A DNA stretch of 64,000 nucleotides from Verrucomicrobiota bacterium (GTDB lineage Bacteria; Verrucomicrobiota; Verrucomicrobiia; Opitutales; Coraliomargaritaceae). Where the stretch lies: assembly GCA_039815375.1 (NCBI GenBank), contig JBCBZJ010000016.1, forward strand, positions 1 through 64,000, given 5' to 3'. Below the pieces are notes generated by a model, which was not told the DNA's origin, searched no databases, and worked only from the letters and a program-made list of their open reading frames with translations. Within the stretch, counting starts at the first letter, position 1. Each line of letters starts with the position of its first letter. The position numbers were made by a program, and so were the translations under genes. This document shows positions 1 through 5,500 of this stretch, piece by piece.

Positions 1-535
1 CCCTGCCCTTCCACCAGAACCGATTTAAAGCGCTCCGCCCAGAGCGTGCCATAGCGCTGATGGGAACGGTTATACCAGACCGAGAAACGCTGTTTTACCG
101 CTTTCATGTATTCCGAGACATCACCCATCCGGGCCAACAGTCTCCTCCGAATCACCTCAGCTTCCTCACCACCGCCCTTCAGCTCCTTCTCCATCACCCC
201 GATCGAAGCGGTCTGGTATTTGGTCGGTTTCGGGTAAAGCACCCGGTAGCGCCGCAATAGCTCACGATCAGAGACTTTAGAGACATCCGGAACCCGTAGG
301 AGCACATGGAAGTGGTTCGACATCACGCAATACGTCAGCAGCTCCACCCCGCAGAAATCAGCCACCTGACCAAGCATCTTTCTCAAAACCTCCCTTTGCT
401 TTTCAAGTCGCCCAAAGGGCACCCACTTTCAAAGTCTCTTCGAGACTCACTTCGATCGCCATCTACGTGCTACCGCACTTCGTCCCTATCCTGAAAGAGA
501 CGCTCACCATTCACCGTCCGTGTCATCGTGTGATA
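1..535 (-). pseudogene. REP-associated tyrosine (HUH/Y1, RAYT-type) transposase, interrupted by an insertion; runs off the window edge
   Basis: Manual minus-strand translation: YHTMTRTVNGERLFQDR | insertion with in-frame TAG and frameshift | EVLRKMLGQVADFCGVELLTYCVMSNHFHVLLRVP...MKAVKQRFSVWYNRSHQRYGTLWAERFKSVLVE. Contains the HUH motif (NHFH) and the G-x-L-W-x-x-R-F-K-S motif. No convincing start codon upstream of YH. Confidence 0.9.
391..487 (-). mobile_element. 87-nt hairpin-rich insertion element (copy 1) with 5-bp direct repeats
   Basis: TCCCT at 391-395 and 483-487 flanks 396-482. Removing the element plus one repeat restores the transposase frame. Three hairpins; homologous to 1597-1675. 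Confidence 0.8.
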
Positions 536-596
536 TCGGTCGGGATAGCGAAACGAAATTAGAATCTTTAGGTTAATGAGGCATCTTGTCTCAGAT

Positions 597-1013
597 TCAC
601 TGCATGCCATCAACACCCTTACCTTTGGTAGTAACTGATTTTTGAGGGTCAGCAATTGTGCCATCTGCAAGAATTATGCGGGAGAAAGTGACTTTGGCCG
701 TTGTGGGTTTGCTTTGCGTATCGACTGTCAGCTTGAAGCTTTGAGCCTTTTCGGGCTGGAGTGGTTCCTTAGCAGCGGAATCACCTCCGATGATCCACTG
801 AGCTTTGTTGCCGACAACCTTGCCACCATCATCCATTAAAAATACCCAGACGCGGGCATCCTTAATCCCTTGCTCAAAAGTATTGTTCGCTTCGAGCTCA
901 ACCAAGGATGTATTCGAGCTGGCATCCAAAGACGAAACTGAAACCTCAAGATTTGCGAACATTGGCAAACACATTACCCCTAGGCTAATATACGTTAAAA
1001 ATAATAATTTCAT
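597..1013 (-). CDS. Hypothetical secreted beta-rich protein (138 aa)
   Basis: ORF with hydrophobic N-terminal signal peptide, alternating beta-strand pattern, low GC. Confidence 0.7.
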   Translation of the reverse strand: MKLLFLTYISLGVMCLPMFANLEVSVSSLDASSNTSLVELEANNTFEQGIKDARVWVFLMDDGGKVVGNKAQWIIGGDSAAKEPLQPEKAQSFKLTVDTQSKPTTAKVTFSRIILADGTIADPQKSVTTKGKGVDGMQ

Positions 1014-1043
1014 TAGTAAAAATTCAAGTAAACTGTCTAGTCT

Positions 1044-1421
1044 TCAAGAAAAACCTTCCTTCCAATACATAAACCAAAGCAGCGTAGAAATCGTCAAAAT
1101 CAACCTGCTTCCTTCCGAAAAATTAAATTCCACTTCAATGGGTATACTTATAAATACTGGCGTAAAGACAGACATCTGGGCAATCAGGATGCTCGTGCCG
1201 TCAACTATGTTTATTTTAGTTGCACTGCTACTTCTGGAAACAAGCGAAAGCAAGTATTTCCGGTCTTCGTAATTAATTTCCGCAGAAGTCCAATCTGAGT
1301 TTAGAAGTGAAACCGGCGCGGTTCCTATCGTACCTCTACAATCTTCTAGGGCGATCTCAGTAGAATTCATCCTTTTATTATAACTCATCCAAGTGGGTAG
1401 TTCACTATAGCCAAACTCCAT
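1044..1421 (-). CDS. Hypothetical protein (125 aa), possible orphan immunity protein
   Basis: ATG-started low-GC ORF co-oriented with the RHS locus; no recognisable motif. Confidence 0.5.
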   Translation of the reverse strand: MEFGYSELPTWMSYNKRMNSTEIALEDCRGTIGTAPVSLLNSDWTSAEINYEDRKYLLSLVSRSSSATKINIVDGTSILIAQMSVFTPVFISIPIEVEFNFSEGSRLILTISTLLWFMYWKEGFS

Positions 1422-1493
1422 ACGATATATTCTTTTAGATGTTCGGCTTTAACCAATCAGAACTCTCATTCAATTCGGGACTGATTCAGCGGG

Positions 1494-1750
1494 GCACTGA
1501 GCCCCGACTAACTTGCCGCGACTGGCACAACAGGATATTATGAGGAGTTTCTGTGTGACGTGGAGAGAGCTTGTCGAACGTAACGGCACCGAGCGACGGA
1601 GCGCGACAGCGCGGAGATGGCGAAGCCCCGAAGGGGTGAGGAAGGTGGGTGCCCTCCGGGCAACCTGACGAACAAAGCGAAGAAGAAACTGCACATAATA
1701 TCAAGTTGTGCTACCAAGCGGCCTCACCTTCCACGGGCGGGGCTCAGTGC
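1494..1750. repeat. Nested inverted repeats (13-bp outer, 28-bp inner), attC-like or MITE-like shell
   Basis: GCACTGAGCCCCG (1494-1506) and CGGGGCTCAGTGC (1738-1750) are perfect reverse complements. 1525-1552 GCACAACAGGATATTATGAGGAGTTTCT matches the reverse complement of 1684-1711 at 24/28. Confidence 0.85.
1592..1680 (+). mobile_element. 79-nt hairpin-rich element (copy 2) with 5-bp direct repeats
   Basis: AGCGA at 1592-1596 and 1676-1680 flanks 1597-1675; 57/79 identity by hand alignment to the reverse complement of 396-482. Confidence 0.8.
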
Positions 1751-1946
1751 GGGGGCGTGGGTCCCGGGCGGCATTTGCAAGAGGGAGAGCCGAGAGGCGA
1801 TTGGACAGCGGCAGCCGTTGCAGAGTTGCCCGAAGAAGCGGCCAAGCAAAACAAGAGGCGATCCCGCATTGCGCGACAGCGGAGTTGACGAGAGCGAAGC
1901 CGGTAAGATCGCAATGCGATCTGTTAGGCGAAGCGAAAGGAGTTGA

Positions 1947-2573
1947 TCAGGTATCGAGGGATATTTCATCCCAAGGCTCATCACATAAGATCCAGTCAAG
2001 TGCCTTGCGGCGATTTGCTACAACGTAAATTGGAACAACATTGGAGATTTGCTTTCCGTTCATTCCAGCAGCAATTAATCCCCAGTGGAGACAATAGGCT
2101 AGATCAGCTTCGACAAGGACTTCTTCAATGCCCCTAAACTTGATGCTACTCCTAAATTTCTGGCTGCTTTCGCCAGTCTTCACATTAGGAAACAAGCCGA
2201 TAAAATCGTTCGAGCAAAGCTGAGAGAAGTCAAAGCTACTATGAATCGAGAGAGCCCAAGTTAGAGCCCACAAGGACTCTACTTGCCCTTGAAACGACTT
2301 ACTGTCACCGCTGCCTTCGATTAAGTATTTACGCTCAATCGGTGAAAGCTGGTCAGCTAAACCTTCATCTTCTAACCAGCTCAATGCCGATTCAGAGGGG
2401 AATCCATAGGAGTGTGCGACTACGCCAAAAAGCGATAGGCTGCGCGTCAGTATTTCTTCTGGAGATCGGGAGACCTCCACCTCGTCCAAAAGCGGCAAAG
2501 ACTCATTGATCGGATATCCTAGACGATTCGCAACCTTCAAGGAGCCCTGCCTGATTTCTGATAACTGCATCAT
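1947..2573 (-). CDS. DUF4272-like protein; candidate cognate immunity protein of the RHS toxin
   Basis: Motifs ESLWALTWAL, DLAYCLHW, RRKALDWIL and C-terminal WDEISLDT; starts 5 nt after the RHS stop codon. Confidence 0.8.
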   Translation of the reverse strand: MMQLSEIRQGSLKVANRLGYPINESLPLLDEVEVSRSPEEILTRSLSLFGVVAHSYGFPSESALSWLEDEGLADQLSPIERKYLIEGSGDSKSFQGQVESLWALTWALSIHSSFDFSQLCSNDFIGLFPNVKTGESSQKFRSSIKFRGIEEVLVEADLAYCLHWGLIAAGMNGKQISNVVPIYVVANRRKALDWILCDEPWDEISLDT

Positions 2574-2578
2574 AAAGC

Positions 2579-5500
2579 CTAGAAGAACGTTCCGAATCCA
2601 CCAGTTCCATTTGGTCCAGGGTGAAGGACTGGCTGAAGCATAGGATTAGTATGCTCTCCCGTGCGCAGAAGTTGCATCACATTGGGATTATCAATTGGAT
2701 GGTGCCATACTGCGCCCGGTGGGTTCAAGAAGTTACGTCCTGCACCTGAGTTCATATGCTGCAGGACATCCGTTCCCAACTCAGCATCAAACATACTTCG
2801 TAATTGTGGACTATTTCCTAGTTGGTCAGCTAAGAAATTATTAGCAGACGTTCTATGCGCCCCTCGAGTCGTTCCACTAATGGGTGCCTCAAAGATAGCT
2901 TCATACTGATTGAAGTTCGTCCGAACGACATCGTCTACTCTGTTTGTGGCATTGAATTTTTGTAGTGCGCGACCACTGGCTCCGATATCATTCGCATATC
3001 TCGCTGGAACTCGTAAAGCATCATCCAACAAGCCAACACCTCCGACTTCGAGCCCAACCGAAGCATAATTTAAGGCAGCCGATCCGTAGTTTCCCTCATC
3101 AAGATCCACTGCCGCATTGTAAGACTGACCAAATGCGCCGACTACTGGGAAGTTACTACTATAGTCCATTACGGCACCAATCATGGGAACTTTCTCTCCC
3201 CTCAACACCGCATTGCGTTTAGCATCTTCCCAACCTCCAACGAATGTGTCGTGAGCAGCATCCTTCATATTGTTACCAACACGATGGAATGAGAAATCCG
3301 ACACGTAGCCCGAGGTGGTAGACCAAGCATTCGCTACACCATCTTTAAATACATCCCATCCAGTCTCTCGAACATAAGGTTGCTCATCAAAATTACCAAA
3401 ATCGCCCATTGGACTGAAGGCATACGAGGAAAGCTCACCGCCTCTTCCGGTTGGATCGACAAAGTTGATCGGGTCGCCATTAGCGAAGGAATAGAGGTCC
3501 ATCGACTCAGCGTGGCCAAGCGGATCGGGCGAGAGGAAGCGCCCGGAAACAGGATCATAGCAGCGGGCACCCATGTGTATGTAGCCCGTCGGATCATAGC
3601 GATAGCCTCGCCATGCGCTGGCTTCCCATAGTTTTGTCGTGACACTCGTTGAGTCCGTTTCACCCCACTCTTTTGGCGGTGGCTCTGATGCGACTCCGTA
3701 AGCCGTCGTATTGGTCGACCCGTAAACAATTCTATCTTCGACTCCAGACTCTATGTGCGCAACAACGTTGCCTAAGGTATCCAGCATCAAGGGGAAGTAG
3801 GTCGATAGACTCTCAAGGTAGGCAGCACATAATCCACCAATGCCGTGTAGACCCCCGTAGCTCCCATTTAGATCGGGGCCATAAATCTTCCAAGTGCGTG
3901 CGTCGTTTAGGCTAACGGAGACCTCCATATAGAGGATTTGCGGATCAAAAGTGCTTAGGTAGAGGTCTCCAGAGGGAGCGGTTGTGCCACTCGTAATCGA
4001 CTTGTATTCGACCTTAAGTCGTCGACCCAAGGGATCGTAAGTGGCGGTAAATTCGAATCCGTTGTTACTCGAATCAAGTGTCGTCAATCGGAGCAGTCGT
4101 CCGTTCGAATCCCAAATTAGTGTCTGAGTAACACCATCCTGATTTTGGCGTTGCTTTGTGTAGCCCTGCTCGTCGTAGACACTGTTAGTCCACTGATCAT
4201 TGCCTGAAGGACTACGCTCAAATCGAGAAACCTTCGTTTCACCAATTACAGATCCAGATTTATCTACCGGTGTAGCGCTTAGCTCGTATTGACCTGGAGC
4301 CAAATCAAGAGGAGCCGACCAAGCACCGTCTGCTGCATCAGGGTTAAATTCAACTTCGCCTATTGTTGTCTCTACACCGGTGGATAGGTTTGTTAGCGAA
4401 ACGATAACATTACTGGCACCACTTGAGCTCCCAGAGGCAAAATCCTCTGTTGTATTTACATTGACTAAACCTTCGGCCTCGCGGTGCATGCGCGCAAAGC
4501 GATCCAATCCAGTAGCCGGAATAGACCATAAAGTGCCACTTGGAATGTGGGGACCTAAAACATCGAAAGGTGGAAGCGTATGATCGAGATGCTTTTTTCG
4601 TCTGAGCACCCCGAGCTTGGATGCGTCGAAACCATAGTCGATTTTAATAAGGAGTGAGGGATCTAGCAATGGTGGCCACGCATCAGAAGGAAAATCAGGG
4701 CCCCAATCCGGAAGTATAAATGGATTAGAGGGGGCATCGTCGGAAAAATATGAACTGGCAAGAAAGTCCCCGACCGTTTCATGAGTTAATTGCCCACGGG
4801 CATTGTAAGTATAAAGGCCCATGGCCGATTCGGGCACGGTATTATTGCCATTTGTGCGGCCTGATTCGTAAAAGCCTGTCTTTGAGCGAAGACCATCTAC
4901 CCGCCAAGACTGTAAGGCAACTAAATCACCAGTTCCTACAATACCGTTCGTCAAAGTCGTCCTACTCTCGGCCAGACGTCCTGCATCGTAAGTCTCATTA
5001 TATTCACAAAGACTAGTTGCCCAGCTACTCGACATTCCACTCAAAAGGCCGCTGGTGCCGCGACCGAAACTGAATGCTTCCGAACCACCAGAGGTGTGTA
5101 CTGTGTTCGAGGAGACATATCCATCAGGATCGTGGTCGAAGACATAGCGTTGGACCGCATCGCCCAACTCTCCGGTCAGCAGCTCGGTGCGGCGTCCGGC
5201 GGCATCCCACTTTTGCTGGTAGCTGCTGTGCGTAGCCGCAGCAATCTGGATCGTCTCCTGATACAGTTGACCATGACCATCAGTGAGCCATGAGACCGAG
5301 GTATCCTCGTATGCTGCACTGATATAGTCACGGGTGACACTGGTGCGCACACCACGACGGTCGTAGGTGGCTGTTGTCGTGTAGCCCTGAATATCCGTAT
5401 TACCGGAATGCGTTTCAACGAGCACACGGTTGAAAGCATCGAAGCTCGTGTAATCACTTCGCAATCCTCGGGACAGATCCTTGGAGGTTTTCAGGAGACC

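Follow-up and report, generated by a model that had tools for sequence, protein, structure and literature searches.

Two diverged copies at the edge of a contig

The stretch analysed here, referred to as the window, comprises positions 1 to 64,000 of contig JBCBZJ010000016.1 from a Verrucomicrobiota bacterium of the family Coraliomargaritaceae (order Opitutales; assembly GCA_039815375.1), and two diverged copies of a short folded element lie near its first nucleotide. An earlier note on this DNA had proposed a non-autonomous mobile element that is kept for its fold and acts as single-stranded DNA (ssDNA), and the comparisons described below support this proposal. Compared genomes, contigs and loci are designated by G, C and L numbers, G000 being the window's own genome (3.56 Mb).

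Copy 1 (396..483, minus strand; ACG...AAGC followed by an AA tail) splits a Y1/RAYT transposase gene (3..584, minus strand; PF01797, E 5e-9; NF047646 below its cut-off) at the Glu codon of a D-R-E stretch. The start region of this gene is decayed, the gene runs off the contig end, and a paralogue lies on C32. Copy 2 (1596..1675, plus strand; ACG...GAAC followed by an AA tail) sits in the loop of a long imperfect inverted repeat of 257 nt (1494..1750; arms 1494-1506/1738-1750 and 1525-1552/1684-1711), a relative of which, on C62, is devoid of the element. Two public contigs share only 1594-1675 with the window, which means that relatives of copy 2 sit in other contexts.

The alignment of the two copies is as had been claimed: the reverse complement of 396-482 matches 1597-1675 at 57 of 79 positions with one gap of 8 nt, while the best score in 2000 shuffles is 37, and each copy retrieves the other by blastn with an E value of about 1e-6 against the whole genome. 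The limits of the copies had to be corrected, since the 5′ end lies one base further out (A483 and A1596) and the right ends at 396 and 1675 include the AA tail. The net insertions are 398-483 (86 nt) and 1596-1673 (78 nt), and a covariance model (CM) made from 29 copies of the family finds them with 69 bits (at 398-483) and 71 bits, respectively.

The element, a gene-less DNA of 80-110 bases, consists of a head (ACG-N-A), a hairpin H1 (4 bp, GNNA loop), the linker GNAGATGG, a variable hairpin H2, a hairpin H3, a domain H4, a last C and the AA tail. H4 is made of an outer stem of 11 positions, a GGG bulge and the inner hairpin TGCCC-loop-GGGCR, and it closes at the last C. In copy 1, H1 (467..478, GTGC-GGTA-GCAC) has covarying pairs and a GNA on both sides, so that it is probably extended by a GNA/GNA internal loop; the linker (459..466) occupies near-invariant alignment columns, H2 (with a C-GAA-G loop) and H3 (GTCTC-GAA-GAGAC) span 434..458, and H4, with tandem G-A pairs in its outer stem, spans 398..434, all on the minus strand. 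The corresponding parts of copy 2, on the plus strand, are H1 at 1601-1612, the linker at 1613-1620, a minimal H2 at 1621-1625, H3 at 1625-1637 and H4 at 1636-1673.

The three stems named in the earlier note are all present and covary across 29 family members, but the third is merely the inner part of the 11-bp outer stem with its tandem G-A pairs. The "invariant linker" AGATGGCGA holds for AGATGG, which is conserved, and not for CGA, which opens the fourth, variable hairpin that had been overlooked. No terminal inverted repeats are seen, as had been stated.

The covariation score of 29 copies is 0.317, versus 0.132 ± 0.010 for shuffled alignments (0 of 500 shuffles score as high) and 0.05-0.09 for slid controls; double changes occur at 20 of 29 base pairs, a figure that is inflated by the kinship of the sequences. 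In the set selected by its 3′ end, in which the pairing of H1 was not imposed, its pairs are CG/CG (47), TG/CA (17), CA/TG (3), CC/GG (1), CT/AG (1) and others (3). In 144 elements, 140 triloops are GNA, compared to 28 on the opposite strand; GNYA tetraloops outnumber GNRA (102 versus 32) and UUCG is not seen; tandem 5′GA/5′GA pairs occur 63 times and the other order twice. It is well established that d(GNA) mini-hairpins and sheared GA pairs are DNA-type structural features, so these counts are the signature of a molecule that folds as DNA, not as RNA. Folding of single sequences gives only weak evidence (z −2.2 for copy 1 and −0.2 for copy 2). The unpaired AGATGG motif and the GGG bulge are conserved, and GNAG tetramers border H1.

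Other small hairpins are found within the element at H1, H3 and H4 in six loci (L213, L211, L198, L207, L075 and L356), with the element ends intact. The inner hairpin of H4 also occurs by itself (about 18 nt, without a head) inside AACAAAG-type tandem repeats (L348, L363, L403, L407 and L433), and may be a micro-element in its own right.

The insertion joint

The earlier note had read the pentamers next to the two copies, AGGGA (391..395 with 483-487, minus strand) and AGCGA (1676..1680 with 1592-1596, plus strand), as direct repeats of a 5-bp target or crossover site AGSGA. The pairs do exist, but they are coincidental: this geometry is found at 2 of 140 unique sites, which are the two window copies. 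AGGGA belongs to host codons, and judging from the reading frame the pair is a chance product of R-E-R-E coding. Removing 86 nt from the split RAYT gene gives F-Q-D-R-E-R-E-V-L-R, with the spacing of the C32 paralogue and of 14 of 15 homologue rows, whereas removing 92 nt leaves the protein two residues short of its homologues. Empty alleles of the copy 1 site, present in public contigs from two runs of one study, are 86 nt shorter in net length. AGCGA is host sequence and, to judge from the other members of the family, should not be a duplication either; an empty allele of the copy 2 site was searched for in public contigs and none was found. Both for copy 1 and for the family, the duplication is refuted: the abutting duplication measures 0 nt at 126 of 140 distinct sites, and the 8 sites where it is 6-7 nt long resemble tandem arrays that were already there.

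The bases that touch the element are constrained instead. Among 69 CM hits, obtained with a model that does not include the flanks, the base at −1 is G in 67, the base at +1 is A in 67 and the base at +2 is A in 54. For 74 of 253 filled sites an empty-like allele could be found in the DNA compared; 24 were set aside because of gaps near the joint, and the 42 ungapped best pairs of filled and empty alleles represent 29 events. In these 29 pairs, the left flanks differ at the background rate (14%), whereas position +2 differs in 13 (background 14%, p 6e-5), 12 of which are changes of G to A; 5 pairs differ at +1, always to A, but the parser demanded an A at this position. Four pairs keep a base other than A at +2.

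The clearest case is that of G130, where the sequence is G-[91 nt]-AAAC in three filled copies of IS91 and G-AGAC in the empty copy; the latter is 99.2% identical over 120 nt and differs at +2 alone. Similarly, in tRNA-Ser remnants, AATGG follows the insert in 6 of 6 cases, while AGTGG is found in the four for which the intact copy was compared. The empty allele is AG in 13 families and AA in 10, so that both are hit about equally often, unlike what strong target choice would give, which suggests that the AA is the element's own tail. The target is thus a G followed mostly by two purines, which are turned into AA: the element appears to overwrite two target bases after the G instead of duplicating its landing site. 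As to a general need for a hairpin at the target, the mean folding energy of the targets equals that of shuffles, and there is only a weak complementarity between −2 and +3 (z 3.7, the sites being related).

Exact excision of the element restores reading frames both where it lies on the sense strand (IS66, IS91, RHS, Vsr and dehydratase genes) and where it lies on the antisense strand (integrase and RAYT genes); the antisense cases exclude an intron. The insert accounts for frameshifted RAYT, IS66, IS91, integrase and RHS genes in Opitutales. Together, these data establish a multi-copy, covarying sequence that inserts in a strand-specific manner after a G, without duplication and in either gene orientation, and is followed mostly by AA.

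Extent of the family and its landing sites

A profile built from three copies, and then the CM, uncovered further copies in the window genome and its relatives. Six are mapped by now in the window genome, the other four being C12:27184-27313 (minus strand), C12:17962-18059, C12:19371-19468 and C45:5749-5835. The first of these (130 nt) is the sole orphan end in this genome, its head being damaged and its H2 interrupted by a nested insert of about 50 nt; the last lies in frame within an RHS gene, at Y-D-G-W|N-R-I, and has no repeat.

With the CM, 197 matches are obtained, distributed over 35 of 61 Coraliomargaritaceae genomes. In a sample of the phylum, with 29 candidates scored per genome, matches are found in 14 of 140 other genomes, all within two families of the same order (8 of 13 and 6 of 7 genomes). 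A search of species-representative genomes with a 25-letter head pattern returned at least 124 stretches, the record titles of which name Verrucomicrobiota in 111 cases, "uncultured bacterium" in 5 and other taxa in 8; in the latter, the remainder of the element is absent. Out of 126 distinct head matches, 80 parse as full elements of 76-149 nt, 39 are without the required 3′ motif, 2 are without an end, and the remaining 5 were discarded as parsing errors. The taxonomic boundary is not strict, since a record labelled Akkermansia (L128) contains one full copy. An independent 3′ pattern gives 106 distinct matches in metagenomes, 80 of which have a head at most 220 nt away. Searches of plasmid and phage collections with copy 2 gave no match, and in viral contigs the 5′ pattern occurs at 2 loci and the 3′ pattern at none.

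As regards novelty, Rfam returned nothing on the element in window positions 1-4000 or at 20 further loci (E up to 5 and 2, respectively), nor did NCBIfam with two in-frame peptides of the element. The literature searched holds no description of the family, with subscription journals, ISfinder and supplements outside its coverage; the additional files of PMC3733652 on the repeats of O. terrae may bear on this point. That the earlier note did not recognise a named family agrees with these searches. The element is real, and among the small non-autonomous ssDNA elements it is apparently a variant that has not been described before, its joint being unusual.

Shorter sister elements of 26-65 nt share the head but have a shorter H1 and other 3′ modules (for example G000:C10:25927-25952, minus strand, and loci L457-L486). 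Their head pattern is found in 35 of 61 genomes, the control giving 0. In 15 of 19 tRNA loci that could be parsed, the sister is inserted at the G|AA of the T-loop in a duplicated tRNA tail; L449 (G058:C3) and L443 (G067:C20) are arrays of tRNA-Ser tails in which one unit has a small GIY-YIG gene between sister elements.

Landing sites of the full element are genes, which it enters in both orientations, heptamer arrays, REP-like loops, duplicated tRNA fragments and the element itself. The complete chromosome of G207 has 16 copies, ten of which, 81 nt long (8 identical and 2 with one change), break the same codon of RAYT paralogues, on a chromosome with 46 PF01797 matches. The ten filled RAYT sites all read G|AA, while 14 of the 16 empty ones read G|GA and 2 read G|AA. 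The median flank identity of the filled paralogues is just 57% and 70%, and both repeated insertion and conversion fit this burst.

Self-nested copies occur at one internal site of H4 in L340, L370, L397, L429, L382 and L409, several with 4 extra bases after the AA. In L194, the insertion splits a non-mobile host, a dTDP-glucose dehydratase-like gene (PF16363 on both sides). L275, L270 and L079 contain tandem units of an integrase and an IS91-type Y2 gene, with intervening genes and ends that look attC-like by eye; such units in G206 hold several copies of the element.

Mechanism, rivals and known systems

The movement of repeats of less than 150 nt that have neither inverted repeats nor duplications (SDRs, Rickettsia palindromic elements (RPEs), CGTC REPs) is an old open question. 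In the present family the ends are defined to the base, the joint has a signature open to testing with oligonucleotides, some filled and empty alleles are nearly identical, and one complete chromosome has seen a recent burst. A small enzyme able to write some 100 nt of structured DNA after almost any G, with nested cargo tolerated, would also be interesting as a tool.

We tentatively favor, with somewhat less than even confidence, a mechanism in which an HUH-type 5′ transfer to the target G is combined with a 3′ end that is annealed by its tail and sealed by the host. A trans-acting HUH-type enzyme (Y1 or Rep-like) would nick at the head, and the 5′ A of the element would be transferred to the 3′-OH of the target G, giving the exact left joint. 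The 3′ end would be released imprecisely, with two A's of the donor flank, which would anneal opposite target positions +1 and +2 and displace those bases; host repair would then seal the joint, and replication would fix the inserted loop. This reading draws on the exact left joint (G at −1 in 67 of 69), the excess of AA at the right joint, the ssDNA fold, the G207 burst and a weak tendency of the folded strand to be the G-rich strand (87 of 140 sites). HUH transposons, as PMC10288648 presents them, typically insert in an orientation-specific manner, without duplication, and have end hairpins; Replitron-1, described in the same source, goes in after RG, its left end being exact and its right ends fuzzy and donor-derived, and this is the nearest described behaviour.

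Several observations weigh against the HUH-type transfer. The strand bias is confounded with gene orientation. The filled and empty pairs are paralogues, not true ancestors, with 24 of 74 candidates gapped and set aside, and target choice among paralogues could partly mimic the AA excess. The cut sites of characterised RAYTs, CT or CA with a GTAG guide according to PMC8266576, differ from the joint of the element. No autonomous long form was detected in the loci examined: of 417 heads and 298 ends, none formed a pair of a 5′ head and a distant 3′ end, and orphan ends and recurrent neighbours revealed no such form either; Pfam scans of the neighbours show mixed hosts and no dedicated gene. The presence of the element tracks genome size (rho 0.63 in 61 genomes), and once size is removed no HUH family tracks it: the partial rho is not significant for the RAYT subfamily (0.10) and IS91 (0.11), nor for reverse transcriptases (RT, 0.02) and GxxExxY (0.21), these genomes being kin and not independent. 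Finally, in G067, a genome with 8 copies, PF01797 has no match at 1e-4.

The RAYT subfamily of the copy 1 host is not found in 13 of the 35 element-positive genomes, 8 RAYT-positive genomes are without the element, and one genome with 34 RAYT matches has none; the neighbouring RAYT is for this reason regarded as an insertion host rather than as a demonstrated mover. Other Y1 clades were examined in 6 genomes. IS91 is present in 9 of 61 genomes, all nine element-positive, and is not found in 26 of the 35 positives; the IS91 loci have no match to the head or tail of the element save the inserted copies. No tnpA/tnpB element sharing ends with the family was seen among the loci listed. In two high-copy genomes (loci L258 and L252), short Y1 transposase genes lie between direct repeats of 88-101 nt, which are unrelated to the element.

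A broader idea, which we consider possible although speculative, is that the element and its sisters belong to one modular superfamily of ssDNA elements without genes, ranging from 26 to about 150 nt, with a shared head and exchangeable 3′ modules, which would be copied in by a novel route: exact joining after G, replacement of two bases by an AA tail, and an enzyme so far not known as a transposase, either a small GIY-YIG nuclease or an unannotated protein. If this is true, such elements can saturate one site in diverged transposase paralogues and may thereby also hold RAYT and IS91 elements in check.

In a rival explanation that dispenses with a transposase altogether, a small single-domain GIY-YIG ssDNA nuclease (Ssn-like) would cut beside the folded head, and the element would be copied in through annealing and repair synthesis by the host. 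Out of five families compared over the 61 genomes, extra GIY-YIG genes (the count minus one for UvrC) are the sole one associated with the element after correction for size (partial rho 0.38, p 0.003); they occur in 28 of 35 positive versus 9 of 26 negative genomes and in 10 of 10 high-copy genomes, but this association ignores kinship. The element adjoins a small GIY-YIG gene at 2 of 24 loci and sisters do so at 2 more; one full element lies about 110 nt behind such a gene, and in tRNA-tail arrays sisters flank one. Against this route, a GIY-YIG motif lies within 1.5 kb at only 1 of 30 sister loci, and G207, with its 16 copies, and G130 have no small standalone GIY-YIG at 1e-4. SsnA cleaves ssDNA just upstream of an oriented hairpin, according to PMC11893778, but its NTS/SRM motif, a CGTC hairpin, is absent here and no strand-transfer activity is reported for Ssn in that source. 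We consider this nuclease route rather unlikely.

Ordinary peel-and-paste by an IS200/IS605- or RAYT-like enzyme, in which G|AA would be a strict requirement and the excess of AA would only reflect which paralogues could be hit, seems improbable to us. It agrees with the frequencies of A at +1 and +2, with the G207 empty sites, most of which are not G|AA, with the guide-like GNAG tetramers beside H1 and with the frequency of RAYT genes as hosts. However, AG families are hit as often as AA families, which strong target choice would not be expected to give, the G130 alleles differ at +2, 3 of 10 high-copy genomes yielded no member of the RAYT subfamily, and IS200/IS605 enzymes set their target on the 5′ side by guide pairing (as PMC8266576 describes), whereas here one 5′ base and two 3′ bases are constrained.

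Enzyme-free copying of a stable fold, through template switches at stalled forks and conversion among paralogous genes, with G and AA as microhomology, is slightly less probable still. Primer realignment would fit the overwriting, the flanks of the G207 copies are mosaic, and tandem arrays and duplicated tRNA fragments harbour many of the copies; but the ends are fixed to the base at more than 100 unrelated sites and the unpaired AGATGG and GGG bulge are conserved, which points to a reader of sequence, and the family is phylogenetically narrow.

An RNA element, either a self-splicing mini-intron or a retro-element using target-primed reverse transcription, is very doubtful. Many coding insertions lie on the sense strand, and target-primed synthesis would account for the replaced bases; R2 elements cause a 2-bp target loss, and an RNA route has reportedly been proposed for SDRs. 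Against this, antisense insertions split integrase (L145, L151) and RAYT genes, the loops are of the DNA type, Rfam gives no match, 5 of 10 high-copy genomes and the window genome itself yielded no RT, and element lengths are even over the three frames (31/27/24). Last, the reading as a miniature element with a 5-bp AGSGA core, duplicated at the target or used for crossover, accounts for the pairs at both window copies and has next to no chance, given the 2 of 140 sites, the two residues lost by a 92-nt removal, the 86-nt difference of the empty alleles and the C45 copy without repeat.

The element also differs from the described classes. It is not a miniature inverted-repeat transposable element (MITE), for its ends ACGNAG and RC-AA are not complementary and 126 of 140 sites have no duplication. 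As an IS200/IS605 derivative it would be expected to have a conserved 5′ target of 4-5 nt and a free 3′ flank, while only the G at −1 is strong and AA follows on the 3′ side; as an IS91 derivative, it would share ends with IS91 loci and have a tetranucleotide target, neither of which is observed. A self-splicing intron or Rfam RNA is rejected on the antisense insertions and the lack of a model match.

SDR1-8 of Nostocaceae, described by Elhai et al. in 2008, are said to be gene-less, 21-27 nt long, with a fold kept by compensatory change, to occur in heptamer arrays, in transposons and nested in themselves, and to be confined to one lineage. As far as this description goes, the present family resembles them in being short, gene-less, self-nested, confined to a lineage, folded with compensatory changes and present in heptamer arrays and transposons; the SDR length fits the 26-nt sisters but not the family, which is 76-149 nt long, has four hairpin domains with DNA-type loops and a G|RR target with AA replacement, and belongs to Verrucomicrobiota. 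RPEs are structured, about 100 nt long, and can be in frame in genes. The in-frame C45 copy in the RHS gene recalls them, but the family has no frame preference, is mostly disruptive, and its encoded peptide has no NCBIfam match. SDR5 has been linked to HIP1, according to PMC5861425.

REPs, as PMC3733652 describes them, are palindromes of 20-40 nt tagged with GTAG or CGTC, usually in inverted doublets. The likeness to REP/REPIN-RAYT systems (PMC3733652, PMC3116915 and PMC8266576, as far as these sources describe them) lies in the non-autonomous, oriented ssDNA hairpins, the GNAG beside H1 and the RAYTs present in many of the same genomes. Unlike them, the element is a single four-domain unit, with no tagged palindrome, inverted doublet or REPtron arrangement; its joints are not CT/CA, and it inserts into REP-like repeats and RAYT genes themselves, with the uneven co-occurrence given above in place of a cognate RAYT.

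Non-autonomous Helitrons and Replitron-N1, going by PMC10288648, share with the element an oriented insertion after (R)G, an exact left and a fuzzy right end and a terminal hairpin, and in Helitrons, as here, the first base of the element is that of the right flank. They are eukaryotic, however, with known autonomous partners, and Replitrons have direct terminal repeats and fuzzy ends that add bases, whereas those of the element replace two. The Ssn-related NTS/SRM repeats of PMC11893778 are likewise oriented ssDNA hairpins, and small GIY-YIG genes co-occur with our family and are flanked by its sisters; but an SRM is a single CGTC-tagged hairpin of 20-50 nt, unlike the sequences found here, and Ssn is not shown in that source to mobilise DNA.

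An integron attC site (RYYYAAC...GTTRRRY, cut at G|TT) was also considered and rejected: its register fails to restore the RAYT frame and the fold of the element has four domains. In the window itself, a likeness to attC cores was judged by eye at 1574-1580 and 1923-1929, and the region 597-2573, downstream of an RHS gene, contains three short genes, one of them coding for a DUF4272 protein, with structured spacers between them.

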